A stretch of DNA of 64,000 nucleotides, from the NCBI GenBank assembly GCA_036172245.1, contig JAYWIR010000002.1:4526001-4590000 (forward strand), given 5' to 3'. The DNA is from Raillietiella orientalis (Eukaryota). The notes beneath the pieces were generated by a model that had not been told where the DNA came from, did no database searches, and was given only the letters and a program-made list of their open reading frames with translations. Shown one piece after another: positions 5,001 to 35,659 of this stretch. The number at the start of each line of letters is the position of its first letter. Position 1 is the stretch's first letter. The translations under genes were made by a program, and so were the position numbers.

Positions 5001-8000
5001 CTGGCTTCGGCATCTGCCGAAAGTCTTCCGTAGCGACTGCAGAACGTTCGCTTCTTCCACACTCCTCCCAGATGTCGGTTGAGATACACCTATTGTCTTC
5101 TGGTCGACAGCAATAGCTAATGTCTTTCGAGCTCGTGGCTAAGGTGCGGGCGCCGTTGCCGAAGATTCTAGATTCTGAGTAAAATGACGCATGAATTGGA
5201 AGCAAATCGTCTTGTTTGAGTAGAATGCGATGCTGCAAATCCTCCGAACTGCCGCATGATCTCGAGAAGCAACAGCGGTCTGTACGCATGCGAGCCAGAA
5301 CTCATCAGTCAGCAGCCGGGCAAAGGCTTCGGGAACTACGACAGGACATTCGTATCGCGGTCACGTGCCGGACGAGCGAACGGCGCGAGTCTGGACCATA
5401 CGCCCAGGGGAAAACGTAACCGTCTTTCCTGATTCGAGTGCGAGTCTTTCTTTCTATGCCTCGTGTCCTCTCATCTGTCGACCCTCAGTCACCTTCGTCT
5501 GTTGAACGCATATTGGCCGCATCGTTATGCGTGGGAAACTTCCGAAAAATCGTTTCCGAAATTCCAACTTCCGAAAAACTTTCCGTCTCGACCTTTTCTC
5601 TTTTTCGGCATCCTTGCTCTTTGAACGAATCAGTTCTTCCCTTTTTTTTTTTTGAATAGCTCGTTTTCCACCTTCCTCCTCTCGTGTCTTCTCGCGTTTC
5701 CCCTTGGTCTTCACGTTCCTCTTCTCACAGCAGTTCGAACCTAAGCGATTCCATGACTCTGGGAAACCATCTTTGATCACTAGGGAAACTCCGTTGAACG
5801 CGGCTTTTTCGAGCTGCATGCTCTGGTGCTCTGTCACTCGCAGCAACCCTCCTCCTCCTGCTTTGGGCTGCTTCGCTGCCCTGGCCGGTAAGAGCCTTCC
5901 ACCTTTCCACTGCTCCGCCTTCCGCCGCTGCGAATCCGATCTTGTCTTCTCGCCTTTGTATTCCGCCGGAAGACCTGCCGTTCTCTTCTCCTCCACTCTT
6001 CAGTTTCGCTTCTTCCCTTAGCGCCAGGATTCCTGGTCTCCCTATCGGATGCCGGCTTCCTTCGGGAACTTCGGAAAGCGTCGGCAGATGTCCCGGTCGC
6101 TTTTGGATTTGAACGGAATGTGTTTTTGCTTCAGCTATCAGTTAAGAGTAATAGTAGTAATAGCAGTAGAAGTAGTAGCAGCAGTAGTAGTAGCAGAAGC
6201 AGCAGCCGTAGTAGTAGTAGCTATTCAAAGTCGCAGTCGTTACTATTGCAGTGCAGAACAGCCAGAGTGTTTGCATATCGCTTCCTTCACATTTGCCGTG
6301 TTCCGTGTTGCGTCACCGGTCACACGCAATTCAGCGTTTCCGTCTCTTCCATCATAACACGCGCTTACGATGCTGCATGCTGCTTGCCTTACGAGCGTAC
6401 GATGTGTACGGAGGGGAAATACAAAGCGAGACGCCTGGTCTCGATCGATGGGAGTCGATCTCGGCCTTTTTGCATTTTTCCATCCGCGGAGATGAGGGTG
6501 CGGCTGCAACTGGCCTGTTTTCCGATCAACTGATGCTGGAACATCATCCTTCGAAACTGATCTTGCTGTTTCTGTTTTCAGCCGCTCAAATGGGGATAGT
6601 GAAATCCAACTTGTGCGCCATTATGAAGAGCAAAGGATCCTTGAAGCATTACAATGGATACACTTCTTGCCCACTTGTTACGGGTAAATCATTTTTGTGT
6701 TGCTCCAATCATCTCTTTGCACGCGCTCCTCCCCCGTTTCTCAGCAACAAGCGGTTTCTCGGACTCCCTTCTGCTCCGGCGTTTTTCCCGCAGCCGAGCG
6801 GATCGATTTGTCTGAAGCTGGGGCGTTTCCTTTCCCGAGATCTCCTTGGACCGATCTGCTCTGTGAGCGGTCCCGGAAGCCCCGAGCGATTTCGAGGGCA
6901 GATTCGCGAGAGTTTGCCGCTTCCCGCTCTTCTCTTCCTCGGTCTCTCAAGCTGAGCTCCGAGACTGCACGGGACAATTTTCTCCGAATGTTTGGTCGGC
7001 CTGCGACGAGCACGTCGAGTCGTCCGCAGCTCTTTCCGCGCCTGCATCCAGCAACCCGGGGCCAGCTCCCCTTGGCAGCTGCGTTCTCCTTCGTCCTATC
7101 ATCCGCTGCCTCCAGCAGTTGGCAACGGAGTTTGGGATGGCGGTGCAAATTTCCCCTCGCTGCAAACTCTAGCTCCGTGAGCAGAGCCCGAAGGTAAGGT
7201 CGCCGTGGGTGTCGTCGTGAAACTCCGCTCCCCCGAGCGCACCAGCACCCGAACGAAAGACGGCCGGTTCCAGTACTTCATTGTCGGTTCGTGGACACAC
7301 GCTTGCCATCCGGAACTTCATCTGGTCAGCCAAGAGCATCCGTTTCTTGTCGTCCGTTTGCTTTCCTTGGAAGCGCATGAGTCTTGGCCTAGAGGAGTCA
7401 TCAGCGGGTCGACTTCCGCGCTCAGAAGCCGTTCTCGGAAGGCGCGGCTTCTGAGCGCTTCTTCGACCGGAACTCGCCTTACAGAGTGAGCTCTTTCAAC
7501 TCCTTCCGCTTTCGAAACTTCTCGTCCCAGCATCCGTAGTCCAGGAGCCTTCACGGCATCAGCTTTTCCGCTCTTCCTTCCACCTTCCGTTCTGGAAAAT
7601 TCGGCTGTTCCTCGCAAGGGAACCGCCTGCCCTCGGACACTCCTTGATCCCTTCGCAACGAAGCTCGCCTGTGACCATCCTGGAATCTCGAGCGACTTCG
7701 AAAGAGCCCGGGTAGGGCCCAATCCTTATGCGAGCCTTACTCGGAACTCTGGGGACGGAAGCGTGGTGTCTTGCCTCTTCCGTCTCCCGCCCTCCGCGGA
7801 GGACTTTCGATTGGACGGGAGGACGGCCGGTTGCACAGGGCGTTCGGGAACTCCCTGCCCAGGAGGAGTTGGACGGCTGTATCCAAAAGCTGCGATGAAC
7901 CTCTTTCCGGGAGCCGCCGAAAGTGGCTCGCGCGTGCGCGCGGGTGGGCGCAAAGAAGGGTGCACCGCCCGCGAAATCGAGCGACTCGGGAGAAAAAAAC

Positions 8001-8936
8001 GACACGCGTCCGACACCCGCGTCTTTCGTTTTGTCAATCGCTAGCGATCTCTCTGTGCCCCTGCTGTGGAGGAGCAAAGCTGCCGCCACTGCCTCCCTCC
8101 CTCCAACCTTTCCCGCTTTCACCGCTCCACCGACAAGGTTGCTGGACCAAAGATGCTGCTTGCCATGGATTCGCTGGACCTCTGCGGATTCTATCGGATC
8201 TTCCCGACTGCCTTGTCTCCCCGATTCCATGAATCCTAAACGAAGGCGTTTCTTTCCTATTCTGCCGTCCCTCTCGTCTCGAAGTCTCTGCTGAGCTTCT
8301 GTGAGAGTTCCATCCTCATCTCGCTCCTGCGGAGCCTCGGAGCAGTCCAGAAGAGAGGAAGCTGCGCAACTTCCCTCTGCCCACTCGTCCGTCCCTCGAG
8401 TCACGCGTGCACGGGAAAAAATCTGCGGGAGGACTTTCCCCGAGTGTCTGCCTGCGCGATGGAGTTCGCGCACCGGAGGACCTGGCAGAGAAGGGTAGGG
8501 GGTGGGGGGTGGGGGGTTCTCGCTCCGATCCCCCGTTCCCGCATGCCAGGTCCTCGCCGATGCCGGTTGCAGCCGCGGCTGCACGCTGCTGAGACGCGTG
8601 TTCCAGCGAGGGGTCACGGGCACACACACACCCACACACGCCATGCTCGAACGTGCCTCCCTGCCCTTCAGGATTCAAACGCTGTGTGCTGGCCGAGTTC
8701 GACTACGAGAAGAAGCCCGTGGAGACGCTCCCGTTCGACCAGCGGCGGGAGAATCGCCTGGCGTATTTCGTGAAGAAGAGCGTCATCCCCTTCATCTACT
8801 GGAACCTGATGCTGAGGTAGGCATCCTTCTCCGAGAAAGAGGGAACGGCACGAAAGATCGGTCCTTTTCTCTTTTCAGGGGATACTGGGAGGGACCTTCC
8901 AGAATCAGGAGAATCCTGAGATTCGGGAGACCCTGA
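2032..8936 (+). CDS. SQOR: Sulfide:quinone oxidoreductase, mitochondrial (5'-partial). Exons 2032-2256, 2322-2516, 4213-4422, 4479-4665, 6582-6683, 8672-8816, 8879-8936
   Basis: The GT-AG exons join in frame to 373 aa. Recognisable SQOR segments: HYYQPLWTLVGAG, YEYLIIALGI, KCPGAPQKIMYL (catalytic Cys), [40 protein letters not shown] (second catalytic Cys), LAEFDYEKKPVETLPFDQ, YWNLMLRGYWEGP. Stop TGA at 8934-8936. The N-terminal GxGxxG exon was not found in 1-2031. Confidence 0.95.
3100..3900 (-). mobile_element. Decayed non-LTR retrotransposon RT fragment inside a SQOR intron
   Basis: Minus-strand peptides GNKAGPCSAVDI (like KAPGxDG), SYVSGRRSG (like AYVPGRS) and SSLVDGVFVRF occur in RT order, with stops and frameshifts. 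Boundaries are approximate. Confidence 0.35.
6147..6221. repeat. Imperfect (AGT/AGC)n trinucleotide microsatellite
   Basis: agtaatagtagtaatagcagtagaagtagtagcagcagtagtagtagcag..., intronic in SQOR. Confidence 0.85.
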
Positions 8937-9723
8937 AGAGCGTTCCCACGCTCCGTTTTCCACTTCCTGCTGTGCTTGCTGATTTGTTTGAAAGGCGTCT
9001 CCAGAGCTCAGCATCCTCGGGTCAGCTCGCCGCCGCCGCCACGCGCTGTCCATCGAGCGCCAGACCTAGCTAGAAGACAACAGGACTCCCAGGAATATCC
9101 GTAGAGACTTTGGGAACACGGGTTTGTGTTCCTGTGACTGGTGGGCGGCTCGAAACATGCAGCGCCCACGTTGCCGGTCGCTCCACGCATCCGCTCAGAG
9201 TTTCGAGAGCGAGGAATGTGACCGGGCGTGCTTCTTAGGTTCTGCTCTTAGCGCGGCCAGGAGTGCAATGGAGCTCTCATCTTTTCACTATCATCACCGC
9301 ACTGTTCATTGCTTTGTGGAGAGACGCCTGATTATATGCTTTGCATTCATAACTCATGATGAATGTTTATGGGAAGGGGGGAGGAGGGAGAAAGGAGGGG
9401 AAGGAAAATAGAATCCCTGACTCGCCCACACTCTTTCTAATACACCAGCGCGCGCATGAGAGAAGAAAAAGCTCCACCGTACGTCTTCAGGCACGAAGGC
9501 TCGAATTAAGTAATGAAAATAATGATTCCAATTGAATTTCTGCACCAGAGTCCCACGTTCCCAGACGAGGGATTCGGACGGAATTGGACAGTCTGCAAGG
9601 CAGGGCTCACCGCAGCAGATCCAGAATGCTGCATCAGATCCCGGAGATGAAGCGAAGCTTTCAGATTCGATCTTCGTGCCAGTAGCTGCGTTGCTGCTGC
9701 TGCTTTCGAGCTGATAGGAACAG

Positions 9724-10914
9724 CTTTTCTTCCAAAAAATCACATTGCAAACACTTGAAAAACACAACACGAACTGAATGGCTCTGCTGTGTCTCTTTCT
9801 TTGGCTAGCAGACCGTTTAAACTTCATGAGCTAAGCGAGAGGCTCTTTTCCTCTACAGCTATTCCTCCCACCAATAGTACCATCCTCCAGATGACGCATC
9901 AATCTCTGCAGATGTCCTCGGCTTACCGTCTAGAAACATCTGGAGGATGTCCTAGATGGTGCGTCGGGTAATCGAGTAGGTATGCCTACCGTACTGGGTA
10001 CATGAGGCCACCATCAAGTGCCTCATTGTATCCGCATACCGCCTCGGGATAATTAACTCCCAAACTACTGCATCGTTGCGAGGGTCTTACGATCCTAATG
10101 CACCTACGATGAATGCACGTGCTTCAGCCTTTTTTCGTGAGCAGCAAGGCGATCCCCTGACACCTTTTCTCCACTCTGGCGTGACCAAGTGCCTCTTCCG
10201 TGTTATCAAAAGGACAGGAGACTTCAAGGGCGACCGTTCTATTCGCCTTCTGCAGCACCAGATCCGGGTCTGAGGCTGGAGTCTCCCTCTCTCTCTCTCT
10301 CCCCCCCCCCCCTCAGGCACAGTCTTGCTCGCCGGCACCAACTTCCATCCTGCAGTATCCTTCACCGCTGCCGCTTCTATTATGGCATCACGCCGAGCTG
10401 TGTCTAGGAGAGGATGCCCCATGCAGTGATTCGAAATTCAAACTCTCGTCCCAAGGTACACGGCTCCGGCATGGTCTTTCTCCCCGGGGCCTCCTAGCAC
10501 GCCCCGAATCGGAAGCAGGTTTGGTCTTGCCGCATGGATGAACCGGAAGTCGGCGAAGCGAAGGCTCTCTCCACTGGTTGGAAAGTAACTGCACGAACGA
10601 TGAAGTCCTGCACGTTGTATGGCCTTTCCTTGATCCGGGTGTTCGTTGATCATCTGCAGCCATGAGCTTCCTCTTCGTTCGTTACGCAGTGCCGCGGCAA
10701 ACTTCCTCCTCCTCGTTGCTGCATCGAACGACAGGTCTCCAGCTGGAATCCTGGTTGGAATCCTGAAGCTCCAGATTGCCGACATGAGATAGGAGGCTTG
10801 TCTTTCCCTGGCCATGCTGCTTTCGACCACGTACACCTGCGTTCGAAGCGAGGATCTCCGTGGTGCCCACGAGCGTGACCCGAGGTCGTGAGTCAGCTGA
10901 CGTGCATTTAGCAC
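9724..10914 (-). mobile_element. 5'-truncated, decayed R2-group non-LTR retrotransposon with a restriction-like endonuclease, NeSL/Utopia clade
   Basis: Minus-strand peptides in the expected order: PDQGKA...RFADFRFIHAARPNLLPIRG, then a zinc-knuckle remnant and ARRDAII, then PDLVLQKANRTVALEVSCPFDN (PD-(D/E)xK core), then AFIVGALGS*DPRND. Frameshifts and stops are present. Confidence 0.8.
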
Positions 10915-12717
10915 TTACTTTCGCCTCTGCTTACTTTGTTAGAACTTGAAATTCTGTGAACATACAACGTGTACATCTAAAGAAGGCGACTCTCGTCCAT
11001 AGAGGGAATGCAAACGAATGCAACAGCTCCTGTACGTTTACCGGAGCTGTACAAAATTACATAAACGATCTTGTAAGTCGAGCACTACATGTGATTAAAG
11101 TAGACTTCGAATAGTAGCCGTTTCCAGCTCAAACCACATCCTCTACGGATGCCCTGACGAACACCTCAGAAGTTCTGCATAGAATGGTGACGGTGGAAGA
11201 GATGTTCCCTTATTCTTGTCATACAAACGATTTTAACATACAGAAGTGTCGCGTAATACTAAATTGCGCAGCATATTGATGTGCAGATAATAATATTGGT
11301 TGCGCCCAATGAAGAGCGGTGACACAAACCAAAATAGCGACGAAAAACCTTGCAATCCCTTAGAGGCAGCATCAAGGAAGTCCACCGTCTTCTGTTCCCC
11401 TTATTTATGCAATGGTCTTTCTCCTGCATTTTACACATTTTCTTCCCTCCCGCGTTTTCTTTGCTGTTGGTTCCTTATAGTGGGGGCCACAGGTTTTTTT
11501 TTTTTCTTTCCATGTGAATAACTACTATGTCTTCAGCGTTTGGTGAGGAGACACCGTCATGCAAAGAGCTTCTATTGGCGACGCGCTTTTTAAAAGTTAA
11601 ATCTTGAACGTGTGCATTCCTCCTGAGACCAGGAATCCCCTAGGTAATGTGCCTTGGAGCTCTGAGGGTTTCTCTCAGTTTGTTTCAAGACAAATCACCT
11701 CCTCTAACATTTGAGCATTTTCTCAAGGCGTCTTTAGTTGAGGAGAGAGAAAGGGTGTTCGACAGCAAGTGACGAGGGTGCAGGATCCGTCTCATGAGAA
11801 GGACTAGATTAGCGCTAGCCTCCTCTGCTAGGGGTGCGGACCACACTGCTAGTGTTCCCTTTCAGAGAGCGCTCTGATTATCACAGCTTCGGAAGCTGTG
11901 CTTTCTGTATCTGTGATTACCAGCGTGAATCGCCAAGCTCGCTTTAAATCTCGTCTTCGGAATGCGTTCCAGAGCGCTGCTCTCGGAAACCGGAAAGTCT
12001 TTCCCAGCAGCACCGGCCGGCAGTCGAACTGGGTGTGGTGCTCATGGTGTTCACTCGGAACGTGAGTTTTGCATTGGTCGGTTGGTGAGCAGCAGTTCAT
12101 TTGGGTCCTGCATGCGAGAAGCAGCATGTGCGGGATAACAGGATGCCTTTCCTGGAGAGCGCATGTCCTTCAGAAATCTGATTTCTCCCCAGGTTCTCGT
12201 GGACATCTCTTCCGGTTCTGTTTCAGCCTCGTTCTGAGAGCAGATTTTTTTCTTCCCCCGGTACAGAAACCCAGGACCCTGGACGTGCTCGCCCTTGGAT
12301 TCCGAATAGAAATTTGGATTCGTTGACAGCTTTGAGGATTTCTTTCTCTTCATGTGCCTCTGCTTTTGCCTTTGGAGGAGGTTTTGGTTTCCATCTAAGG
12401 TTGTAAATGGTGGCTGTTCGACTTTGGTGTCCTGGAGATCAATTGAAATTCAGCGCAGCAGTTGCGGTTTCTGCTCCTGTGTCTACTGAATTTAAATCAA
12501 AAGCTCCGCTTCCTTCTTTAGCCGGTCGAGAGAAAATAACACGCAAGATTCCGTCTCCCTTGGCAACGTTTACATTTATATTTTATCCCATTTCAGTCTG
12601 CGTGGCAAACGTAACTGTTGCCTGTTGGTGTGTCCTCCGAAAGGACTTCACATCTCACATTGAAGGATGAACAGTTCCAGAAAAAGGAGCCCCCGGAAAC
12701 GGGCAAATGTCATAGGC

Positions 12718-13098
12718 CAGTGGTGGAGAGTCTGAGGCACGCATGCCAGTCTACTACTGGCACGTGCGAAAATTTTGCTGGCGCATCAATAAGTAAAAAA
12801 AAAAAAAAAAAAAAATCACAAAAACAATTTTTACTTAGTCAGTTGGCATCAAAAATACAACAACAAAATTCCCATTAATTATTAAAAGATGTACGTCAAG
12901 TTCTGAATCTTTATGAAATTCTTACTTTGGATTACTTTGTCTTAACTTTTAAATTATTTCAATAAAATTCTGCAATAATCAACCTTCTGCTTTTTGTTTT
13001 TGTTTTCTCTCGTTAAAAACACCCGGGCACTTCAGCATCCTGATAACTATTATTTGTACATTTTTATTGCGCCCGTACAAAGAGGTTCGCCACCACTG
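12718..13098. mobile_element. Non-autonomous hAT (Buster/Charlie-type) MITE, 381 bp
   Basis: Left TIR CAGTGGTGGAGAGTCT; right TIR (reverse complement) CAGTGGTGGCGAACCT. 8-bp TSD TCATAGGC (12710-12717) / TCGTAGGC (13099-13106) with central TA. Subterminal GGCACG hairpin. Confidence 0.85.
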
Positions 13099-13603
13099 TC
13101 GTAGGCGAACTGGGTTTCTTCCCGTGCATGCAGCAACACCACAAAAAACACGGAAAGAAATTTTTTGAGGTGTTCGATGCAGGGCTGCCATGATGACTAT
13201 GGATCACGTGCTGTTTTGCACATCGGAAGCACATCCTGTGATGCTAGATGCACAGGGCGATCGGAGAAAAGAACTGTGCCGTGTCTTGGGTTTCCCCACG
13301 CATTGCAAGTCAATGGGTTCGCAGGTGACCTGCACTTTCGGAGTGACGTCGAGACAACAAAATGTTTATTTTCCAGAGCAAGATCAGGGCGTGTGGTTTG
13401 ATTATCTACCAAGAGCAGCACGTATGCGTGATCCAAAGAAATGCCTCTAAATTCTTTATCTTATAGCGAGATCCCAATTCTTTGTTAGCCATGGAGTTTT
13501 CGATCAGGCAAATTGGTTTTCAACCGGATATCCACTAAGCTCAGAGTGGAAAAAATATGTATCCATGCCTAAAACACAACCATTATCCTGACTGATCGCT
13601 AAC

Positions 13604-13870
13604 TATATGTATTATGTGCATGCATACATATTATGTAGATAGATATATATGCAACATACTGTAGTGTAAATACACAACATATATATAGGTATATGCATAC
13701 ATGCACAATGTACATGTGTATAGTAACATGTATTACTTTAAATTGGTATATAGTTTGCATAGATCCGTACATGCATACAAATATTTTCTATACATACATA
13801 GATGATTGTATACTTTCTATGTATATGTACATAGAAAGCATGCATGTATTTTGTGTGTGTATGTACGTGC
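13604..13870. repeat. Low-complexity TA/CA/TATGTA repeat
   Basis: Degenerate runs of tatgta, catata and tacatg. Confidence 0.7.
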
Positions 13871-16800
13871 ATTCTAGCAAGCGTCTTTCAAGGAACAAGG
13901 TCAAACAGTGGGAGTCTCTGTGTATCTGCGATGAAGATTTGTTGGGATGTTGAAAAATTTTGCTTGTTACGTGCTGTTGTGTGGGAATCCCTGTGTACCA
14001 ACGATACCATCGAGAGGTATTGAAGAGATGATCTTCATGATGTCGATGATTCGAGGAGACTCGAGAGGGTGTGCTGATACTTCTGGCGACGGAGAAAATT
14101 AATGAACTTTGAAGCGATCTTTTACCACCACTCCTGACCTCATTGATATGAGGTTGAGAACAATTTTCTGACGGGCGTGTGCCGTTCTGTGGGAACCGGA
14201 ACTTGAAAAACCAAAAGTGAGAACAGAACGAACTTTACCAGAGTTTGCTGTTGTTCCAGCAAGAACAACGCTGTTTCGTTGAGTTTCTTCCTTCCCTGGT
14301 TAGCTAATCACTCTGCATCTTTCGGGAAATCCACGCGTTGCAACGGATATCAGCCATCGTTGCACCAGCAATAAACTCAAAATACCCTGAAATAGAAGTC
14401 GGCACACATCGAACGCAGGGCCTTGAATTTTTTTTGGCCGATTCTTTTCTCTAGTGCGATTGGAGATGTCGAAATCCCAATCAAGTTTCGATTAAACGAC
14501 TCCTGTTCGCCAACTGGGGCTGTCAAAGAAAGACACTTGTTCCCACCCCACAATACCTTTTAGGCTTTGCGAGGGCTTCTTGTTCCCCAATGCAGAAAAT
14601 CCCCATATGTGGTTGGTACATTTAAGCTTAAACTCTTCCAAATAATGGGACGCTGGATCGAAGCGTTATCTTGACAAGTCGACTTACAAACGGTGTCGGA
14701 GGCTGAAGGTTTATCAAGCCAGAAGCAGTGCCGATGTTTCTCCCTTCCAAATTGAATCTGCTCTCGTGGAATTCCCTCACCGTTTGCATCCGTGACAAGC
14801 TCTTCTTGGAATTCACAGTTGGATGAACATGTGTGAGATTCATGCTCGTGGAAATGGACATGTTGAACGACTCGCTTACAGTTCTTCAAAGAACAGCATC
14901 TGTCATTCCTGCATTACTCACCGCCTTCCTTCCATATGGATAAGGAATGAACAAAGTTATTTCTGCCTCTGTACTTATCAACTGATCGGAAACAAATCCT
15001 TTGGGATAGGTGGGTGCAAGAAGATGCAAGAAGGCCAACTCTGCTGTGCGGATTGATCTCTCCGATAATGACAAGAAAATTTTCCGAGGAATTTTAGGCA
15101 AAAGTACCTATTATGGAACCCTTTGAGCACGTTCTCCCGCGTTCCCCCAATGCATTGGCAATCTCAACTATCCGTTGACGATGTTTCACGTGCCACTTTC
15201 TAAAAGAAAATGCTTTTCGGTCTCTCTTCCCATGAATGTCTTTATAAGCTTCAAGGATCGGTCGAGTTTCTTGGTAGTGGTTTTGAGCCTCCTGTGGGCA
15301 CTTCCGACACACGAGTTCTCATTTAAGGCAAATAACTGCGATTGCTTTCGTCTTAGAAATGCGTTTTTTCTCTTAGTGCCTTTGTTTATTTGAACTTTTT
15401 ATCCACCTGGAATTTTCGGTGTTTCCACGGATTACGTTGTCGGAGTCCGCCCTTGTGCCAGCGACTGTCTTCTGAGGTCTCTCTGATGCCCGCTGTCAAT
15501 GCATTGGGAAATTACGATTGCAAGTCGACATGACTGCGTGATTTCTTTCGGATCCATAAGGTTTGGACGGCCATTTTAGCTTGTTGAGGAATTACTTCCG
15601 TATTCTGCTTTCTTTTGAGGTCTTCAGTAATTTCACTGAGCTACTGAGCAGTCGATTTTTCATCTTAACACCTCGTTTGCTCATCACGTTAGCCACATAT
15701 CTGAAAGTGTATTCCTTTTCTAATTTCATTATGGCTTAATTTTTTTTTTTTTTAAACAAAAAAGACATTCCAGGGAAATCTTTCTTATCTTGTTATCCTG
15801 TTCTCTTACACTGTTTGCGTTGATGACTGATGCTGAACGATGAAGATATGCTTCGCGTTATCTTAATATCTGAGACATCACTTGGGATTTAAATGGATGC
15901 AGGATCTTGAAACGATGCAGGATGACGAAGCACACCGATGAGCCCGATCGATGAACTTATGAGAACATTTCATTCTTGAGCACAGTTGCGCTCCAACGAC
16001 TACGTATCTTTCTAATAGTGTTCCGAGGAAATGTGCTTAGATGACTTACCATTCATCGCCTCGAATCTTCACATCCGAAGTTGCCTCTTGCCTCTAATGA
16101 TTACGCAAACGGATGCTTCTCTTTCATCGTCTTTTCGCCATCGGAATCCCATTGTCGCTAGAAGAACGGAAGCCTGCAAATGGATGCTGGATGATTCTTG
16201 CAATCTCTAAACATACTTTTTGTTTCCCCATGTTATCGGACGCAACTTTGGTGTAGTCACCTATCTGCCAAATTCCGAGTCACGTGAGTGGCACCCTCAA
16301 AACGCCAGCAATTGAAACCTTCAGATTCTTTTGAAACGTCACCGGTGTATCTCTAAACGTCGCCACGGATGTGCTTTTCACGCCACGCGGAACGGTAGAC
16401 GTCGTGAAGCAACGCATCCTGAGAACTCGAAGAATGTGCCGAAGGATCACCCAGGGAACAGAACTGGCTTCAGATTCATGGAAGATTCCCTTCCTCCCAG
16501 GTAATGCAGCGAAGGCTGACCATCTTTCCAAAGACTAATGAAATATTCCCCACTTAGGTGACTCCTCCTACAGACGAAATCGGCGCTCAGCTTGCTCACT
16601 ACACGTATCAAGTCATCAGGAGTTTCGCGTGCCGTTTTGCCAAAGGCTCTTCGGAAATGAAACTCAGCAAGGAACCAAAACGTAAAATGGGGAAGAAAAG
16701 GGCCGTAAACGTTTCGACATTTCCTTCCGCCTATATGCGAATCTTCTTGGCTTCGGCTACACAGCCCGAATTCAATCATTGTGCAAGTAGGGGCAGAGCC

Positions 16801-17556
16801 TAGTCCTACTTGCACAATGATTGAGTAGAGATGGATTCAAATGGATTCACGCTGCCCCTTAATTTCATCGGCTTGACAAAGTACTGCAATTCGTCATGCG
16901 CTTCTCTCACTGAAGCTTTTTTCCCCAGTTTCCAGTGTCGTATGGCATTCCGCTTTCCTGCGCCGTGGAAAATAAAGTGAAATAGGGTCACAGTGACACG
17001 TGTCTTTGCAGGATTTCATTCCTGGAGAGGAAGACGATTATCTTGATCAAAACTCTTCCTCCTGAGCCCGGTTCGGTGGGACAGCGCCACTTTAGTACCA
17101 TTTGAAGGGGAAGTTGGGGCTGTTGGCTTTTCGAGGCAATGGGATTGGTTTCGGTTAGTTTTTGAGTACGACAGGCGGTTGCTCACCTGCTGCTGCCGAA
17201 GTTCGTTTGACGCTACATTGGGCTTGGGCCCGCTTTCGCACTTCGAAGTGCGCGCTGCCCCCGACAGCACAGAACCGGAACAGCACTTCTTCAGAGTTAT
17301 CCTGTTAAAATATTCCCACAAGTTTATCAGCTTTTACATGAGGAAACTCGACATCTGAGAACCATACATTCATAAGGATGGTGGGAGCTTTCTGAGCAGC
17401 CTTCATGCTGCTGCCTGTGCGACCCATTTTCCGAGCCTTTCCAAATCTTCGCCTTTAGTTAAGTTTAGTTTGCCTTCTATTTGATCCATTATTGCCTCCG
17501 TTTTCCGCAATAATTGCTCATTATATCCTTTCCGTATTACTTTCAACACTTATGCG

Positions 17557-17661
17557 CAAAGATTAAAAGAGCTCAGGAAGATGATGGATCAAGTAAAGAG
17601 TGGTGATACTGTTGTTTCTTCTGGTGGGATAGTAGGTGAGCAGTTTATAATAGAAATAGCT
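17557..17661 (+). pseudogene. yajC: Bacterial yajC-like fragment (Wolbachia/Rickettsiales type), putative nuclear insertion
   Basis: Translates to QRLKELRKMMDQVKSGDTVVSSGGIVGE-QFIIEIA. This matches the YajC core (KxGDxVxTxGGIxG...xxIEIA), with about 9 aa apparently deleted between GE and QF. No start codon or intact N-terminal TM helix in frame. Confidence 0.7.
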
Positions 17662-20468
17662 CATGAAAGCTGTAAAGGAGACAGACTAAGAAGCAGAAAA
17701 AATTTCGGGAGAACTGAATGGCTTTAAAAACAAAACATGCATAGTCACCGCGGTAAGGAGTTAAAGATATTCCAATCTTATGCTAGATATACAGTGAGGT
17801 TGACGTGCATCTGTGTGTTGGTGTGCGGCTTTAATTTAGAATCAGTGCATACTGATGCATATTGAGCGATGCTGTTTAAAAACGGAAACTGACACTCCCC
17901 CCCCCCTATCTACTCTATTTTTTGTTTTTTTTGGGCTGTGGTTTTAAATAGCACGATTGCCCCGTTTCGGGTTTTCGAAATATGTCCAGGATGCCTGGGA
18001 GAGAATCCTTATTGCTTGCATGTATGAATCGCTCACTGTAAGGATTATAAAGGGATTCGTCATTTTCATCTGTATTGGTTGCATGATGGGCAAGAAATGC
18101 GCGAGGTGACGACTAATGGTCGCATAACGCTTGGTTTCGGTAAGATCATTTCATCCGTCATCTCAACAAAAAAGTCTGGGATTACATGTGGGTACACACA
18201 GCCTCCCGAGCCTTAAAACTGACAAATCTGCTCTTTGCGTGAAAATTTGAATTACCTCCAAACAAATTCCGCCGTAATTTTAGGATCGCGCGTGGAACAA
18301 AACCTCAGAAAGGATAGGGGACATCGTTCAGTTTGCAAAATACGTTTTGGAGGACAGTTGCCGATGACCCCGAATCCCCATGGGTTCAAAGGAATTATTT
18401 AGAACTTCCGATGTGTGTAAATGGATGAAGTTCATTTTGTAATCCTTTGAGCACGAAACTCCAAGACTCAGAAGTGGGAGAAGGCGGATCGCAGCCCAAG
18501 ACAGTTCATTGGCTTTGTTGCCAAATCTGTCCGAATGAAATATTAGAACTAAACACAAACTTGTCACCTTTCAAATGATCCTCCCCCCCCCCCCTCTTCT
18601 CCCCTTTTCTTTTCGAATGGGAATAATTCTGAAATCCGCATAAGATCGTTTGGCTCTCGTTCGTCCCAGGAATCCACGCTTTTCTAAGTTCGTCTTCAAT
18701 ATTTTTGAAGTCCCATTAATGCAAGCGGCACTTCTGAAATGTATTTAGCACGAACGCCACGCGAAAAAAGGCAACTCGAGAGACGTCGGTGAATCCTCAT
18801 GAACACCTTCGTGCTGGGGAAGCAATTTGCAGAAGAATGAATGCTTCGTGTGCTTTTTTTAACCTCTGATTTTCACAATGGTTTGTCATTCCCCATCCAC
18901 CACAGTTTTCAGGGAACGGAGTCCGTTGTCACTCTGAGGACGCTGGCATTCTTCTCGTATGCCACTCAGGGCTAGCAAAATGTGACTGACTATGAAAATT
19001 CAGAAACGTTCGGAACAGAACGGAATTTCAAAGCACACACAACCTATTATTCGTCGCGATTTTACAAAGTGCAAACAAAGAAGGCAAATTGAATGGATCA
19101 ATAATGATAATAATTATGCTGGATTGACTGGTCAGTTCATCCCTTTCTCGAAGAAAAAAAAAAAAAAAAGAGAAGGTAAAGCGGCACCATGCAACATAAA
19201 ATAAAACATTGCAAAGATCATTGTATGTTTGTCACCGGTTGATTATTTATTTGATTGACCTTCATTTTTTTTGTTTGATAGGCTGTGGCAGGGAGTGAAT
19301 GATTTTTTCTGGATTTATTCCAGGTATTTCCTCGCAATACAAGTCAGAAATCCCAACTATACTCAGATAACTAAATCACACTTCCGAAAATTCAAGCATA
19401 CCTTTACATATAGTAATTTTTTTCTTCTAAATCTACGAACGCAAAAACAGATGATTGACGTATCAGATGTACATGCGCCAAGTATACCTTTATTGTACAT
19501 ATCCTTGAATTCGGTTGAAAGTCTAGCGATCTGATGCATTATAATGCATTATGTACTTGTATACTTCCATAAGGGCTCCTAATAACTTTTGGGGTTATAG
19601 CAATTACCTTCGTGCTTAGTATTATACATTTGCATATTCAAGAGTGCATGTGGTTTAAATTGGTTGGAATATGTACAACATTTCACCCTGGAATCATCCA
19701 CTGCTGCCACTGCTTGTTTGTTTGTTTTTTGGGGGGAATGGATAAAACTGGAATGACAAACCTCCGTCCCCGAGTTTCTGTGCACAGAGTCCAAAAGTGT
19801 TTTAACGTTGCTGCAACACATGGTATTTCTCAAGACGTGTGTGTGTCCACTGTTTCCTGCGATGACACTTGCGTAAGCAATGGTTGCATCTTTCTGATGA
19901 CTGGATGTACAGTGTGCTAAATCTTCACACTCTTTCCAATCGAATAGTGACCAATGAAGGGCGGGGGGGGAAAAAAAAAAAAGAAGAAAAAAAACATATG
20001 TGTCCGAAGCATGTACGAACGTGCCAACAGCTGAAAACGTGCCTAGCTAGCTGGCGTAGTATTCAATCCTTAAACGATTATCGAATATCAAATAAAGGCG
20101 CCAAAGCAGTAATGTTTGGTCACGTGATCCCGTGAATCGATGAAGATATTTTGGTGCTATAATACCATGTGAGCGTTCTTAAAATGCTGCTTACGCTCAA
20201 GGCTCATGGTGTTGTGAGAACATTTGCCGATTTGAATTTTATAACGGAAAAAATTGATTGAATTTATACAGGCGTAGCGAGTGGGTCCACGTGAATGCTT
20301 AACCTCCTGTAGTGTTGACTGATTTTCAGTTTGTGAATAAGGTAAGCGTTTTCAAAAACGGTACTGGTGCGTTCGTTAACGCTGAATGAAATATCGTTCG
20401 TGGCTGGTTACCTCTAACGTGTGCTCATAAAATAATGTCAAAGGGAGGTTTATGTGATTACCTCTAAG

Positions 20469-22064
20469 ATGAGGCTACGAAGAAGAAGAAAATGCAATGC
20501 AGATTCCGTTTCAATCGCCAAAATATCCACGCTTTCATCAATGTTTAAAAAAATCAGCAAGACCGCGTCGATTTTTGGAAGATCAAGAACTCTGCCTCAT
20601 TCGAGAAGGAGCAAATGCAAATATGAGAAAAAAATGCTTGAAACTAAGGTAAGTTCTGACCTTAAAATGGTACTCCTAGGAGCTCTGTAGACCCTTTATA
20701 ATTCATCAAGCGTGGAGAATTCTCTGAAAAGCCATGTACAGTTATCACATGAAAGCCAAAACCAGATTAAGAAATTCTTTGCCTTCACCGATATGTTTTT
20801 GACATCTGCTACTGTGCAAGAAAGTCTGCATGCAATAGCAAGTGAGGAACATTCAAAGGAAGCTGAAACAGTGCATCTCGAAAGTATAGATGAAAGCAAA
20901 CAGATTTTACATTCAGAACATAATGTATCGGAATCATGTTATATCATTGATGGTATGCTAAGGCTTTTATGTTCAGTGATGATTATGTGTACAGATGATT
21001 GTAGAGAGGTGCCAAGAACCAGTAGATGTTTCCATGCTCTTTAGCCCAAATTATGATCCCCCTATGAGCACAGCTCTTGATTTGGAGGAGATGGCCAAGC
21101 AGCTAAATGTGGAAGATGTAAAAACGGTCCTACAAGATGAATTTCTGAAAGCTGCTGGGACTCAAGCCTCTGGATTTGACAGCAGACAAGAATTTGAGGA
21201 CACAACTTCAATGCATATGCCCCAGCATCTAGAATATTGGGATACTTTTGATCCTTATTATTTTATTAAACACTTGCCACCTCTGACCCAGGAAATGCAG
21301 GCTCAGTGCCCTGCTCTTCCATTGAGAACACGGAGAAGTCCTAAATTTTCTTTAGTGCTTGATCTGGTAGTAATATTTAAAAGAGATTATTATTGATGTC
21401 ATGTTTAGGATGAAACATTGGTTCACTGCAGTCTTCAGAAGATGCAAGGCACCACTTTTTCTTTCCCAGTGCATTTCCAAAATGTCAACTATGAAGTGTT
21501 TGTTCGAACCAGGCCCTTCATCCAGGAATTCTTGGAATCCGTGTCCCAACACTTTGAAGTGATTTTGTTCACTGCATCCAAGCGTGTGTACGCTAATAAG
21601 CTGCTGAATCTGTTAGATCCTTGCCGCAAGTGGATAAAGTAAACACAGTTTATGTGTTATGCAATATTTTTTTTTTTTTCTTGTATTTCTAGGCATCGCC
21701 TTTTCCAGGAGCACTGCATTTGTATCAATGGGAATTATGTTAAGGATTTAAGCATTTTGGGTCGTGATTTATCTAAAACAATCATTATTGACAACTCTCC
21801 TCATGCATTTGGCTATCAGGTACTACTGTTCTCATTTATTTGATTCACTTAATTTGTCTTAGCTTGAGAATGGTATCCCAATTGTGTCTTGGTTTTGGGA
21901 TAAAGATGATTGTGAGCTGATAAAGTTGCTACCCTTCCTGCAGTCTCTCATTGAAAAGGTTCTTAAAAACTTTCCATTATTTTGTATTATTTTAGTTGTA
22001 GGAGGATGTACGACCTCCGATCAGGGAGCGTTATCAGCTGCACAGCTTTTTGCCACCTGACTGA
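20469..22064 (+). CDS. CTDSPL2: CTD small phosphatase-like protein 2 (SCP4), 439 aa. Exons 20469-20648, 20691-20952, 21005-21366, 21409-21638, 21693-21819, 21863-21958, 22002-22064
   Basis: N-terminus MRLRRRRK. Conserved blocks [36 protein letters not shown] (HAD DxDx(T) motif split by an intron), [40 protein letters not shown] and C-terminal EDVRP...LPPD*. The exon 2/3 boundary is the least certain; 20924/20995 is also in frame. Confidence 0.95.
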
Positions 22065-22067
22065 GTG

Positions 22068-23174
22068 TCATTGTAACAGCTGACTATTCAGAAAATTAAC
22101 AAACAGTGATTCAGGGGAACTCTTGTTAGGACAGCTTTGAATCAGTTTCAAAAACTGACGTCTAAAAACTGATAGCTGTGCTAAAGTTGGACGATAAGAC
22201 AAAATGACTTTTTCCTCTGTGCCTGCAATGTGTACTTCACAAGGAACATTCGATGCTGCCAAGACTTGCTATAATCTTTACTTGACACCATTCCTAGATT
22301 GTGTGGAAATACCTGAATAATTTGCTGAGTAATGAGGTCCCATGCAGGCAGCTCCTGTGTGCCTTCTGCCGAGTCCTACAAGTATAAGTGCAGTTATGAG
22401 TAAATGGCATTGTGCTTACTGGAAGAGTGGATGCATTGGGTTTGGGAGGAGGTTTCCTATAAAGAGCAGTGAATATCTCAGTTATTGGTACATGTGCATT
22501 GCCACCCTTATAATCAATACAAAATAAAGGCGAATCCCAGCGACTCTTCAAGTTAGGTTGTTCATAGCGTGCCACCAAATCATCAAAAACCTATTCCTCC
22601 ATGATACATGTTTTCAGCATTAATAAATTACCTGTCTGCTATACTGTTTCTCTTTGGGCTGATTTAAATTCCAGGACCATGCTTGATCAGTGGATACAAC
22701 AATACTTACTGTACACTGAGTAGTCTTGCATGATTTAGTCAAACAATAAAGTTCATAGCGATAACCTTAGGATAAAGTAACTCAAGTTGACTGTAAATCC
22801 AGTTTACCTTTTATATAATTGCCTGCATCAAAGATGAGCAATTTATCTAATTGTAATTCCCTGAAATAGATGCAAAGTGAATGAGACTATTTAGCACTAA
22901 TCAATCTAAGCAACTTAATCCACACATACCTTTCTAGTTCAGCTCTCATTCTGTTTCTTAATTGTTTTTCATGCTGTGGAACTAACATGGTCTTTTTCAA
23001 ACAATGAAAACAAAGTCATGGAATACCTGAGAATGTCACATTTTTGTCTTCATAATAGTCAGAATCACATATAATTTTGGCAAGGATTCCAACATCAGAA
23101 AATCCAGCTTTTATTCTTTCTGCAATTGTGCTTTTCCCAGATGATGGAAAGCCACTGATGATGATTAAAGGCAT
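22068..23174 (-). CDS. KTI12: KTI12 homolog (Elongator-associated P-loop NTPase), 273 aa. Exons 23174-23027, 22981-22930, 22860-22808, 22765-22632, 22590-22420, 22375-22313, 22268-22068
   Basis: MPLIIISGFPSSGKS (P-loop), IFDAGNYIKGYRYELYC, LVARYEQPNLKSRWDSPLF, PKPNASTL, LSVFRRQFLK, FVNFLN. Six GT-AG introns keep the frame. Confidence 0.93.
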
Positions 23175-26100
23175 GCCAAATTTTGACTATAGTTTAGTTA
23201 TCATCATGCAAAGTCATTTAACGGATATGAGAAAGGCTCTTCAAAGGCCTGAACCTTTGCAAGGCAAGGACAATTATATTCACATACAACCTGCATGCAG
23301 AAAGAATTATGTTTGAGTCATGATTCACTACATAGAACAATATTTAATACATGATCCCAGACTGGAAGCAAATGTATGCATGAGGCTTTAACATTTTTTT
23401 TTTGTCCTGCTGCAATGCTATGTTTGCAAAAACTAATGTGCTTTTTTACATTTGTTAAGGTGTAAGAATATAACAGAATGGGCAAAAAACTGTATTTGAT
23501 ATGGAAATTACGTTTTACAAATTTTGCATTTCAGAATACTCGACATTTTGTTGCAGTTGTAGTGATCCCTCTGATTAACCAGTTTAGCATTCCTACACCT
23601 ATATAGCTCCTCAATTATTCTGATGTTTATTGATGTTGAAAGCTAAAACTACGTTAACACAATTTTCGTTAGTATCAAGAATGGACATACTTGAAGGCAT
23701 AATATGTTTAAAACTATTTTGCTTTAGAAGGTTTGAGTATGCATTTGGTAGATGGAAAACTTCACTTGGTAAGTCAGAAATTATAACAATGAACACGTAG
23801 GATACATGAGGAAAGAATCAGTTCATTGAATAACCGAAATGCATTATAAAGTCATAGTAATAGGAAAACAGTGAAAGCTTATCACAGCATGTGCAAAGAT
23901 TTTGAAAAAAAACACCTTTAAAAACTAGGCAGGATTCACAAATCCATGACAGTTTGCGCACTTCATTATGTTGCTGTGAAAACTTTTGTCAAAATCCACG
24001 AAGGGCTCTCTTATGCAGCCTGCATCGGTAAGGCCCATTTACTTTTAACACCTTGCTCCATCACATGGCTACACAAAAGCAAAAAGGCGTGGTGGTCGTC
24101 ATTATTTAAATCATTACATGTGATGTACGGGTGTACAACTATGTTTACATGCTAAACCACCTTACAAACACCAGAGAGATGCAATGCAACGTAAGAAACC
24201 TATTTGAAACTCACTTAATGGTAATATAATATGTAATAGCACGCTGGTGACATTTTCCTTAGTAGATAAATGAAACAAAAAGTAATGATAACCGAAGTTT
24301 CATCGAATTTTGCTGCAGCGGATGGGATCCCATGCCGGACTACATTGCCTCCCTCTGCAGCTCCCACGCGAAGCACACAGCGACGTGCGAGCACGGCTGG
24401 GAACCAGAAAGCCCCCGCCAGAACCGAGAAGTGCCAATCCGTCAAATGCTAAAATAACTGAATCTCCATTCAAGTACTTTAATTCGAAACATGTCATTAT
24501 TATAAGCACCCACTCTCTGAGAGGGAACCACCTTTAAATCGTTTTTGTCTTATGGGGTTCAAATTCATTCTACATCCAAGTTTTCAACTCTTCATTCGTA
24601 GTTCAAATTCTGTTGAAGGTGTTTCGAACTTTTCTTGTAAAGAAATTCTTGTAAAGAGAAGTTGCAAAAACACTTGCAAAATCTGGAGAGTAATTATTTA
24701 TTTAGATAAGCGTATCAACTTACAAGAAAATAAGAGGATTGTACGCTATGTGTCAAAAAATACAGCGGATGCAGTTCTAAGTGAGTTTCTTCGGGGATAT
24801 CTTAGGTAAAATAACAGTAGAAATCACTTCAAAGCAACTTTCAAAGCAAATTCCACTGTTATTTTATCTGAAGCATACCGACTGTTATATTGTTATATTC
24901 GCGTACGCATTCACTTTCTCACATTAAAGGCCTTCATTATAAACCAAAAGCATCCTGCTGTATTCCATTCGTTTGTTCAGTTATTAAGGACAAACTCCAA
25001 ACTTTTATCTATACCTGAGAATGAAGAAGATTCAGTCAAGATTTAGCACTCACAGCTTGACAGCTGAGTGCTGAATTTTATTTGAGATCGAAAGTAGGCA
25101 TCTCATTACTTGTTTTATCAATTCCATCTGTTAACTTCACAAATATTTAATAAAATCACCAGTTTGTTTATTATAATGAAGATTTTAATATTAGCACATT
25201 CACTCCAAAGAGTATTCTATTTTAGCAATTACCATAACACGACTCGATCCGGATCCACGTCCACACCGCACCAGTGTAGGAAGAAATCGTACAGATGGGT
25301 CCTGATATTAGTTAAGATCTGTTACATGTTTTGAATGCAGAAGCACTTTCCCTGATGCAGATAATTTACAGTCTTTTATCACACTTGAACGAACATTTGA
25401 CAACTGTCTGTATTACGACTTTACAATACTATTACTGTCGTCATTGCCGGTTACGTCATTGTATTAATATACATGCAGACTGTTAACATCATCAAGCATT
25501 GGAACTAGCAAACATGTACTGCAACGGGCAGCTCGCATGTTTTTCTGTTTATGAATAATAGAGTAATTACCACTAGCATCAGCACTAAGATCATGGAAGT
25601 AGGAATAAAAGGTGCACGGCAAACTCTCTGTAATGAATCTGCTCCCCCAATTCAGAAGACTTGCCGTCACGATACCTTAACTTCGACAGCCAGCACGTAC
25701 TGAAACAGTTGAATATAACCAGATCACTTAGCTGCAACTTGGTGATAGTGATTTGGTTATTTGCTGTATGTTTTAGTGGACTGCCCAAGCCGACTTGAGT
25801 GAGATGCCAATCATGACGAATCGAAATACCGACCAGGAATGGGTATTCAAAGCTGGGATCATCGTAGACTTCAGAAGCTGCTAGGTTGTAGGGCATAGTG
25901 ATGACTGCAACTGAATATTGGACTGTAACTCACTGTAACGATTCGCAACACTTTGAAATTTCGATGTTTATTGCAGCTTTTCAACATGATCTACGTGCAA
26001 CTGTATGTCGTCCACATGAACGGAATACGGAAACGTATTGCTTGATATTCTTTTATTTTAATTCTTTCTGTTTTGTATCGGACAAACTATATATATGAAA

Positions 26101-26498
26101 ACAATCAAACTCTCACTAATTCCTGATTTGAAGTTCATTGATAACCGAAGTGTTGATCACAGTACTACCGAGATCTCCATCATGGTAGATGAACTGTTTC
26201 CGATTACAAGCAAACTTGCTTCAGACAGTACCCACAAGAAGAACGTGGCTTTCAAGATTTCACGTCTGGAATTACAGTACTTCTGCTGGCACCATTTTTA
26301 AAGGTGCTAGAAGATATGCAAAAAAGGAAAAAATTTCACCACTTGAGATCAAAAAATATATTTTTTTCATTATTCCATGGTCAGTAATAATAACGAATTT
26401 CTTCATATAATGCACCTTTTCCAGATACTGGTCTGGATAATCACGAAAATAAAACAACTCAGACATCTAGGGGCACTCTATTGATAAAAAAACCTGGA

Positions 26499-30153
<3,655 letters not shown>

Positions 30154-33100: not shown

Positions 33101-35659
33101 TCAAGTGTTTTTCTTCTATGAAATAGGTCACTTCACACTTTCACGTTTACTACACTCGAGTAAAAATGCCCCGACACAGTGCTGCCAGCATGTTGTCCTC
33201 AAGGAAGTGCCGGGATGAAACTATATATTCGCAGAATCGGAACGAACCTTAGGTGACCTCCGAACTGGGAAGAGTTTGGACTCTGCACGATGAAAGCAAA
33301 ACAAGGGAAATGCTTAGTTTTTGCAAAAAGCAACGTCCTTAGAGCTCACACTTCCATTGCTTGAAAGACTGCTTCCGTTTTGGACATTTGAAATAATCGA
33401 TGTGTTTTTAAAGTGAAATTTGTTCATGGAAAGAACCGAGAATCATTCTAGACGAGAATGGATGCCTGACTGAAATGATGAAAAGCAGAGCAGCTGTTCA
33501 GAAGCAATGAATAAAGGAAGAACACGGATCTAGTCCTAAGGCATGCATTCCTTTCCGTGGAAACGGTTTCTGGGGTGACTGGAAAGAGTGACGACAAGTG
33601 ATTTCCACACCGGGTTCGTTTTCTTTAGGGTAATGGTATTGCCATTCCCCAAGTAGAGAAGTGCTTCTTTCACTAAAAGGCGTGATTTCAGGATTCTTCA
33701 AATCACTTCCACAACGAAGAACACGCACTGCGTCCGATGATTTCCACTTTCCATGACCAATTGGATCCTTCATTGGCTGGTCACTCTGCTTTTCATCACA
33801 CAGTGATCGCGCACGCTTCACGCAGTCCATCCCTAAAATAGCAGAAGGAAACCTTCGATAATTTGAATAAATTGGAAAGATTTGGCGAAGTGTCTGCCGT
33901 TTCTCTCTTGGAGTCGCGGCAAAGCAATACTTGCAGATATTCTCGAAGCAGCCAGAGATGAAGCAGAATAATGGATCTTCTTTTCTAGAGAAGAAAATAT
34001 TTTCTCAGAAACCATTCCCCAACTTCTTTCCTGAAACTATGTTTCCCGGAAGGAATCCAACGAAGGACCTGCTTGAAGGTTTGTGGAGCTGAGACAGCGG
34101 ATGGTGGCCACTTGTATCCGGTACTCAAGCGCCATATATGCAACCCACGCAAAGAAGAAAACCGACAACCAGCTCGATCCTCTAGATAATGACCTCCCTC
34201 CGGAGGAATCTGAGCAAATCAACGAAGCCCCGTTAAGGACGGGGAGGAAATAACAACTGCGGAGGACTCTCCAGAGCCCCTTGCATACAAGCTATGTAAC
34301 CACACAAAACGAACGATAAAATTTCGAATAAAGGGACTCTTGTCTAAATCGCTTCTATTGACACGACCAGCAATTCAAATAAATGAGGGAACTCAACTTC
34401 ATAGAAATTCTGGCATGAAAAGCGAAGGAGTTGCTTTTGTGATCTCGAACGTGGATCCGCAGTCTCCGTTTCTTGTGCTTTGTGGAAAGTGCAAGCAGTA
34501 AGCATGTTGGAACACACTTCCTCTTCCAAGTCAAGAGCAGCATTTGTTCCAGCAAATGGAACTTTTGACCGCCATTTGCATTTGTATCCATTTCTATCTT
34601 TCGCTGTGCCCACTTTCTTTGTCCGTCATTGCGTAAATTTTTACCCTTTCGACCTCATTTTCAACGAGCTTTATTATAACTCTTACGTTGCTGTGTATGT
34701 GTAATGGGAGGAGGACGATCTGTAACAACACGTCCTCCGCGGTGGTTCCATTTCGTTGTTGCGTTGTTTAGGTGCAGCGAATTCGAAATTACGTATGTGA
34801 GTTCCAGTTTCCATGATGACCCAGCACTAGAGGCAACAACCCGACCGAAAGCTTGAGCAATTCAATTTGCCTCGTTGCAGTTGATTCAGGCATTCTCCAT
34901 GGAAGTGTCCGTTTGGACTCTTCACCCAGCATTCCCGAGAGATCCACGGACTGTTGTTGGTGGGAAAGTCCTGTTTACCATATTCCAAATCATTGACGAG
35001 TTATTTATGCTGCTTGGAATGGCGTTCGACTCACTGTGTCTCAAAGTGCCAGTCCTGAAAGACAGCTCGCTTCCATACCATGTGTCGGGTCGACAAAACG
35101 GGTTGAAGACCGAATGTTGTTTATCGCTCTTATGCCCTTAAGCACGATGGCAACGTCGCTAAAGGTTGTTGAGTAAACATGCTGAGGAGTGGCGAATTGT
35201 CATCATAACGACGGAGGGAGATATCGTTTCATAGCAAATACCAATTCCACGAGTTGCACAGATGGGTGGAAACTGATGCGAAAGTGATATTCTCGGTACG
35301 CTAGACAGCCACGAAGCTGTCTGACGTTTGGTGTGGACCAAAAGCGATCAGGAAGGAACGAGACGCTCTTGCAAGGAGCAGGTACCACTCACTGTGAAAA
35401 TGCAATGGATGGCCGGATATTGCGTGCGAGCACGCACAGGAACGGGAAATCAGAAATCAAGGAACACCGTCAGATAAAAGTAGCACGCGTTGCATCCCCT
35501 GGTTCGGTACCCTGCAACAAAAATCCATGCACTACGGCCAGCTGAAGTGGGACGGGTATCGGATTACCCCCCGTGTAAAGCTAAACCCAGTGCAGAAAAG
35601 TGAGCGTCTTCTGGCCCGTTGGAGGTTTCCAGTGCTGCATCCGGATGTTGCTGGAAATA

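Follow-up and report, generated by a model that had tools for sequence, protein, structure and literature searches.

Positions 17426-17749 of the 64-kb stretch of DNA analysed here (the window) hold a 324-bp insert that, judged by sequence comparison, is very probably a complex nuclear Wolbachia transfer (nuwt), made of several fragments, decayed and without function. The insert is composed of the end of an IS element, a broken yajC and a fragment of znuA. These three F-like pieces, apparently unlinked in the donor, lie end to end in single-copy host DNA, are disabled, and have counterparts in similar patchworks of different ages elsewhere in the genome. No function is likely for the insert. 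In itself it is an ordinary kind of fossil, of interest because of the animal that carries it and because of how extensive the patchwork is. On balance, we favour the reading that a tongue worm carries some thousand or more shattered-and-stitched supergroup F fragments (64-98% identity), laid down over a long span; if so, Pentastomida would have their first indication of Wolbachia.

Composition and setting of the insert

An earlier note on this DNA had read positions 17557-17661 as a remnant of a Wolbachia-type yajC, and the plus-strand frame it quoted is present there letter for letter. The identification is sound, as 17557-17664 matches only YajC among 24,736 Pfam models (PF02699, 27.6 bits, model positions 24-50 of 78), although the score falls just below the family cut-off of 28.2. 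The NCBIfam family TIGR00739 is likewise matched at E 1.1e-5, with 25.5 bits against a cut-off of 44.2. The fragment falls short of a full YajC: the start, transmembrane (TM) helix, nine codons and C-terminus are missing and both scores lie below the curated cut-offs. A Wolbachia origin was also upheld. Among 386 candidate stretches from 185,579 species genomes, the yajC of wTis was the only confirmed locus, and a search with 17440-17700 matched 42 of 98 genomes of Wolbachia's family. Positions 17558-17636 are 90% identical to genome G077, and 17641-17660 correspond to wTis 4118-4137. Between these two parts lies the nine-codon in-frame deletion that had been proposed, seen as 27 missing nucleotides (3 window bases against 30 in the reference). 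Searches with the 80-residue frame gave no candidate among proteins and no match among phages, and the Pfam YajC search of the whole host genome (0 of 5 candidates at E 0.001) was empty because the fragment is too short for a search at genome scale. In another Wolbachia genome, G081 (L024), yajC carries a frameshift near codon 90, which is either a real lesion or a sequencing error.

Table 1. Features of the insert and its flanks (window positions)
Feature	Position	Strand	Evidence
Left host flank	16926..17425	.	GC 0.50; single copy; without Wolbachia or mitochondrial match
Piece A: left end of 1,227-bp Wolbachia IS4-type element	17426..17554	-	122/139 identical to L011, one gap
Unassigned 3 nt between IS terminus and yajC	17555..17557	.	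Ungapped match to yajC or IS absent
Piece B1: yajC, from after the TM helix to the GG-I-x-G motif	17558..17639	+	PF02699 E 2.6e-6; 68/79 identical to wTis
Piece B2: yajC resumed after 27-nt deletion (QFIIEIA), then stops short	17640..17660	+	18/20 identical to wTis
Piece C: internal Wolbachia znuA fragment with in-frame TAA	17663..17749	+	86% identical to G077
Right host flank	17750..18249	.	GC 0.43; without Wolbachia or mitochondrial match

The hydrophobic stretches upstream of the yajC fragment had been taken as a possible remnant of its TM helix. Two such stretches do occur at 17485-17550, in frames 1 and 3, but across the 98 family genomes about 130 bp at this place match a multicopy IS element, not yajC. 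Because this DNA matches the IS end on the minus strand, with its terminus at 17554, the supposed TM remnant is antisense IS DNA and that proposal is rejected. Piece A comprises the terminal inverted repeat, the leader and about the first 25 codons of the transposase frame, which has a 1-nt deletion at the start codon, so only 129 bp from one end of the element are retained in the window. In Wolbachia genome G095 the element is multicopy, has matching inverted ends, and terminates at the identical base in 9/9 copies, to which piece A is 88-89% identical. The larger ORF of the G095 element is a DDE_Tnp_1 transposase (E 5.6e-16); elements with this domain (PF01609) go by the label IS4. Target-site duplication is not evident at the G095 copies (L011, L041-L048), which are mostly located in or beside other short repeats, and one of which is flanked by inverted copies of one and the same sequence.

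The third piece, which the earlier note had missed, derives from a gene whose G077 copy is recognised as ZnuA, a zinc ABC binding protein (PF01297, E 3.1e-48); its identity to the wTis genome is 84%. Over 29 codons it differs at 7, 5 and 3 sites in codon positions 1, 2 and 3. In Wolbachia genome G068, yajC and znuA are 382 kb apart. The decay that had been claimed is evident in all three pieces, as a stop codon in znuA, the 1-nt deletion in the IS piece and the 27-nt deletion in yajC. The description 'ancient' holds only in part, since the 83-90% identity of the insert sits mid-range within the 64-98% seen across the genome.

The animal nuclear setting was confirmed. The stretch with the yajC fragment is single copy in an assembly of 210 Mb and 491 contigs, on a host contig (C2) of more than 4.59 Mb, and the GC content of the insert is 0.37, lower than in either flank. 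No target-site duplication was seen at the flanks. The place of the yajC fragment, called intergenic in the earlier note, is only putatively so: none of the three ORFs checked within 1.1 kb upstream has a Pfam match, but the surroundings may be intron or UTR. An inverted repeat with perfect 20-bp arms and a loop of 13 nt, which is not Wolbachia-like, lies 600 bp upstream of the insert (16772-16824). Apart from the three pieces, no Wolbachia DNA was found in 8000-27000 against five Wolbachia genomes or in 27000-46900 against 98 genomes of Wolbachia's family, nor anywhere in the window when it was compared with G068 and with 1.79 Mb of Wolbachia DNA. The reversed window gave zero matches to the whole G068 genome, so the yajC match greatly exceeds what chance would give.

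There are also several likely host genes in the window. A eukaryotic sulfide:quinone oxidoreductase (SQR) gene with introns is located at 2011-6690 (+), on the same contig as the insert. It formed a long, unplaced branch in a quick tree whose rows held no pentastomids, and a Soboliphyme SQR exon matches it at 65% only. Exons of a DUF719 gene are found at 26787-30153 (-). The gene at 46135-47190 (-) encodes an intronless EamA/SLC35G-like transporter of 350 aa with a best match of 25% identity, and a bacterial origin is not indicated because eukaryotic clusters rank first. An exon at 20983-21396 (+), which on the right-hand side is the likely gene closest to the insert, has no Pfam match but resembles CTD small phosphatase-like 2. 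Similarly, an ORF at 62332-62829 (+) with a C-x2-C motif has no Pfam match, and we take it to resemble the end of a non-LTR retrotransposon ORF.

Patchwork inserts across the host genome

A search of the assembly for other Wolbachia fragments, as the earlier note had suggested, found very many patchwork inserts. Wolbachia probes of 8.1, 15.5 and 20 kb gave 20, 21 and 60 matches in the host genome, and the IS element as a probe gave 6, in a search that scored best candidates only. Wolbachia pieces were present on at least 36 host contigs (29 from the 8.1-kb, 15.5-kb and IS probes and 7 more from the 20-kb probe). With donor repeats excluded, each probe yielded roughly one piece for every kb of donor DNA (16 in 15.5 kb, which cover 22% of the probe); extrapolated to a whole donor genome of 1.2-1.5 Mb, this would amount to a thousand or more pieces. 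When 30 host stretches, picked because each contains a Wolbachia match, were compared with the whole of G068, 20 carried at least two Wolbachia pieces. Three control loci with cuticle genes gave no Wolbachia matches against G068.

Many of the patchworks consist of 50-600-bp pieces from far-apart donor sites with mostly blunt joints. The densest, on C56 (12000-32000; L055, L131), has 38 pieces of 59-1,043 bp in 20 kb, mostly 85-96% identical to G068. A 548-bp stretch of C47 (439879-440426; L134:3879-4426) strings together, almost without gaps, eight pieces of 49-102 bp, each from a different donor site, and seven of the eight are 91-98% identical. A 44-bp yajC 5' end, separate from the insert in the window, is fused to a different Wolbachia locus on C7 (4400064-4400297; L053:1565-1798), and the IS piece occurs twice on C82, inverted.

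Clean joints were counted where the gap was at most 12 nt, both pieces were at least 82% identical and the donor copies numbered no more than two. By these limits, 27 of 31 joints connect sites more than 40 kb apart in G068, whose gene order may differ from that of the donor. Shared bases were absent from 18 of the 31. Microhomology at the joints averaged 0.97, whereas a shuffled null gave 0.71 (P 0.09); this is not above chance, and microhomology-mediated joining as the main route is therefore unsupported; for the same reason the repair pathway is a matter of inference.

An alternative origin for such arrays is a single long Wolbachia insertion that was whittled by host deletions and rearrangements until only neighbouring scraps were left. 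The 27-nt deletion in yajC and a 77-bp collinear gap in a Wolbachia insert on C34 show that deletions happen, and the relative orientation of yajC and znuA in the window agrees with that in G068. However, genome-wide the joints are random in order and orientation (18 inverted, 13 same-strand), and the young C47 patchwork already consists of 50-100-bp pieces. Moreover, whittling predicts that the oldest inserts should be the most chopped, whereas the old pieces on C227 and C15 are among the longest. This origin is thus unlikely, though it may hold for the insert in the window taken by itself, and the joining of separate fragments before or at integration is preferred.

The divergence of the pieces bears on whether the DNA is nuclear at all. 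The divergence of host pieces from G068, taken over some 26,000 coding sites, is 11.4, 11.1 and 18.1% at codon positions 1, 2 and 3, so that the ratio of third- to second-position divergence is 1.63, compared with 2.9-4.5 in five living genomes. Changes from AT to GC outnumber the reverse (2492 vs 1476), while living genomes are balanced or reversed, and the divergence is rich in transitions (3168 vs 1472). Identity also varies by locus (Kruskal-Wallis P 8e-6; 11 loci, each with three or more pieces no shorter than 80 bp), the extremes being about 68% (C227) and about 91% (C56). Some young loci keep an excess at third positions, such as C47 with a ratio of 5.3 (124 codons), which would be expected of a recent insert or of a live strain. 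Indel counts were not used as evidence because living genomes, intergenic DNA included, also gave many frame-breaking gaps. In the three probes (43.6 kb in total) no long, near-identical Wolbachia contig was found, the longest match being about 1.2 kb at 64%, and no bacterial 16S was found at full score in the host assembly in a strict first-pass search, which sets a floor. A 1,843-nt match to SSU rRNA on C360 is, from its score and length, probably the host 18S, and a weak 929-nt match to bacterial SSU rRNA positions 9-873 on C23 (26780-27708) is either a decayed Wolbachia 16S or a copy of the mitochondrial 12S.

Taken as a pattern of substitutions, the pieces fit neutral decay after repeated transfers and not a co-sequenced live strain. 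The corresponding artefact, in which DNA of a live Wolbachia from the animal, its food or its host was ligated or template-switched into reads during library preparation or assembly, is very improbable. Blunt joints of random pieces are typical of ligation chimeras, the joints are known from the assembly alone and some patchworks are on short contigs (C227, 23.5 kb), but locus-specific identities, AT-to-GC-directed and transition-rich divergence with flattened codon positions, and the stop codon within the znuA piece all stand against it, as does the lack of a near-identical contig and of a full-score 16S. Least credible is co-option by the host of the 80-codon frame at 17485-17727 or of a regulatory element: the yajC deletion preserves the reading frame, which is open across 80 codons, but antisense IS, yajC without its anchor and znuA read out of frame form it by accident, the eight private changes in 100 sites of yajC fall 4/1/3 over codon positions 1/2/3, and none of 5.8 billion proteins showed three-word sharing with it.

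The donor clade and the host animal

Several pieces point to one part of the Wolbachia tree. The nine best of 15 matches to the znuA piece (25 genomes) are all in the wTis clade, at 82-86% compared with 75-82%. For a 1,042-bp piece on C56, identity is 91-95% with each of the ten wTis-clade genomes and no more than 87% with the remaining 15, and a 1,394-bp piece on C6 is 85-92% identical to seven clade members, three having no match, with full-length matches outside the clade reaching 81% at most. In trees, a glmS piece on C31 nests inside the wTis clade with support of 100/90. A ruvAB piece on C34 falls with the clade on a long branch (0.21 vs 0.01-0.07); this tree was built without the lineages closest to F and can place the piece only as 'F or next to F'. 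By itself, the 103-site yajC piece falls outside the F clade at the base of its sister group, with weak support (83.7/71), and is almost equally similar to G077 in the F clade (89/100) and to G083 outside it (88/100). The wTis YajC and ZnuA clusters include strains of Cimex, Mansonella, Madathamugadia and Melophagus, which are assigned to supergroup F in a published study (PMC12693587). By these comparisons the pieces nest within Wolbachia diversity, and we take the donor to be a supergroup F or F-like Wolbachia.

The host is a pancrustacean arthropod by its cuticle proteins and by the position of trnL2. Its genome has 14 matches above cut-off to Chitin_bind_4 cuticle proteins and no match to the nematode Col_cuticle_N in a search run without a positive control, and a nematode host was rejected on these grounds. 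On the mitochondrial contig (C282), trnL2 sits between cox1 and cox2, described as the pancrustacean state (PMC10355681, in part). This contig is tied to the host genome by its nuclear copies, which match it at 94% on C50 and at 80% on C33; both span the degenerate region between cox1 and cox2. In that region (L063:1745-2300) there are two copies of trnL2 and about 500 bp of degenerate DNA, and the duplicated trnL2 with the shifted nad3 and tRNAs looks like tandem duplication with random loss. Nuclear mitochondrial copies are plentiful, with 54 COX1 matches on many contigs, many of them with stops. Neither the window nor 30 loci contained a mixed mitochondrial-Wolbachia insert when compared with 9.2 kb of the mitochondrial genome.

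Three mitochondrial features point to a pentastomid as the probable host. In the host, cox2 directly adjoins trnD with trnK missing between them, an arrangement also found in Armillifer (PMC12202648) and in Argulus (PMC10999652), as far as the available sections of both papers go. Furthermore, the 9.2 kb of mitochondrial DNA has a GC skew of -0.62, an AT skew of +0.12 and an AT content of 64.5%. Six pentastomids have GC skews of -0.575 to -0.648 and AT skews of 0.049-0.116, compared with a GC skew of -0.31 in Argulus japonicus, and very strongly negative GC skews are noted for pentastomid mitochondria in the accessible text of a preprint (10.1101/2020.05.09.085712). The absence of trnK, the skew and an AT content of 60-65% are suggestive, fitting pentastomids though not being unique to them. 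Gene order, with tRNAs identified from anticodon stems since ARAGORN at relaxed settings gave noise, differs from that of known genera. The host has C-Y-W-cox1 where Armillifer and Linguatula have W-C-Q-Y-cox1, and nad3 after G, N, A and S1 where they have G-nad3-A-R-K-N-S1-E-F, so that it would be of a genus other than these two, or a non-pentastomid. The best COX2 matches (47-48%) are an earthworm, a wasp, Sacculina and a beetle, with no named pentastomid among them.

Formation of the insert and comparison with known systems

In the proposed sequence of events, the germline of the host lineage would have carried the symbiont long-term or repeatedly, and the DNA of lysed bacteria would have been broken into pieces of 50-600 bp. 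These may have been ligated together, mostly bluntly, by host end-joining and captured at a chromosome break, as is suggested for complex numts and nupts. The insert would then have decayed neutrally by drift towards the higher GC content of the host, a stop codon and the 27-nt deletion.

One of the joints could be older than the transfer. The IS terminus and yajC are 3 nt apart in the window, and a second, older IS end (80%) on C227 (11254-11454; L125), the only other IS-end piece with a readable flank, also ends at the terminus and adjoins another Wolbachia stretch, a tandem repeat with a 126-bp period in G068, within about 8 nt. Near-exact ends in two of two cases are unlikely from random breaks, so these joints are probably the work of transposase in the bacterium, unless excised IS ends were captured. 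We therefore lean towards an IS|yajC joint formed in the bacterium, where the IS element was inserted into yajC or excised beside it, and only two pieces may then have been joined by the host. Against this, the IS copies in G095 are mostly within other repeats and yajC is intact in 19 of the 20 Wolbachia genomes read.

That the infection is still alive, and possibly nutritional in a blood feeder, is doubtful, though the youngest pieces would allow it; if true, dependence on the symbiont would become a question, as it is in filariae and bed bugs. With a pentastomid as host, Wolbachia would be extended to endoparasites of vertebrates, some of them zoonotic. Supergroup F, the sole supergroup common to arthropods and filarial nematodes, would gain a new lineage of vertebrate parasites as hosts, which would bear on its movement between arthropods and vertebrate-parasitic worms. 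The patchworks are also ready data on the breakage and joining of symbiont DNA before chromosomal entry, and preserve bits of a donor genome that apparently had IS insertions in genes. The 324-bp insert has value as a marker and almost surely does nothing itself.

Compared with functional YajC (PF02699, TIGR00739), an accessory subunit of the Sec translocon, the window copy is homologous in the cytoplasmic segment after the TM helix but has no TM anchor, start codon or C-terminus of its own and is not a working member of the family. Nuwts as such are well known, including those that survive as fossils of infections since lost (PMC12693587, PMC2882956). Those of filarial nematodes and arthropods are likewise short and decayed, number hundreds per genome and record infection (PMC12693587, PMC3849323, in part), and in Brugia two adjoining nuwts come from different parts of the Wolbachia genome (PMC3849323). 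In contrast, as many as eight pieces crowd into 548 bp and 38 into 20 kb in the patchworks described here, and the host is pancrustacean, probably a pentastomid. Patchwork nuwts on such a scale were not found described in the literature, nor were reports found of Wolbachia in pentastomids, in a search that left most subscription journals outside; one paper mentions both without connecting them (PMC10911609), and the accessible part of one study on crustacean infections gives them as B-related, with Pentastomida unmentioned there (PMC3335409).

A close parallel is the clade F 'palaeosymbiosis' of the cattle lungworm Dictyocaulus viviparus (PMC4046930, in part). Disabled F-like fragments are likewise spread genome-wide in that animal, with no known live infection, and form a long terminal branch inside F. 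However, D. viviparus is a nematode, and its insertions were confirmed by read pairs and PCR in a second isolate, compared with the assembly alone here. The pieces described here reach 95-98% identity, and transfer would thus have continued until fairly recently.

Similarly, complex numts and nupts, the mosaic organelle insertions of plants, bring together distant fragments at joints that are blunt or share a few bases, which the accessible text of PMC6215612 ascribes to non-homologous end joining before or during integration. The difference is that the donor here is a bacterial symbiont and not an organelle.
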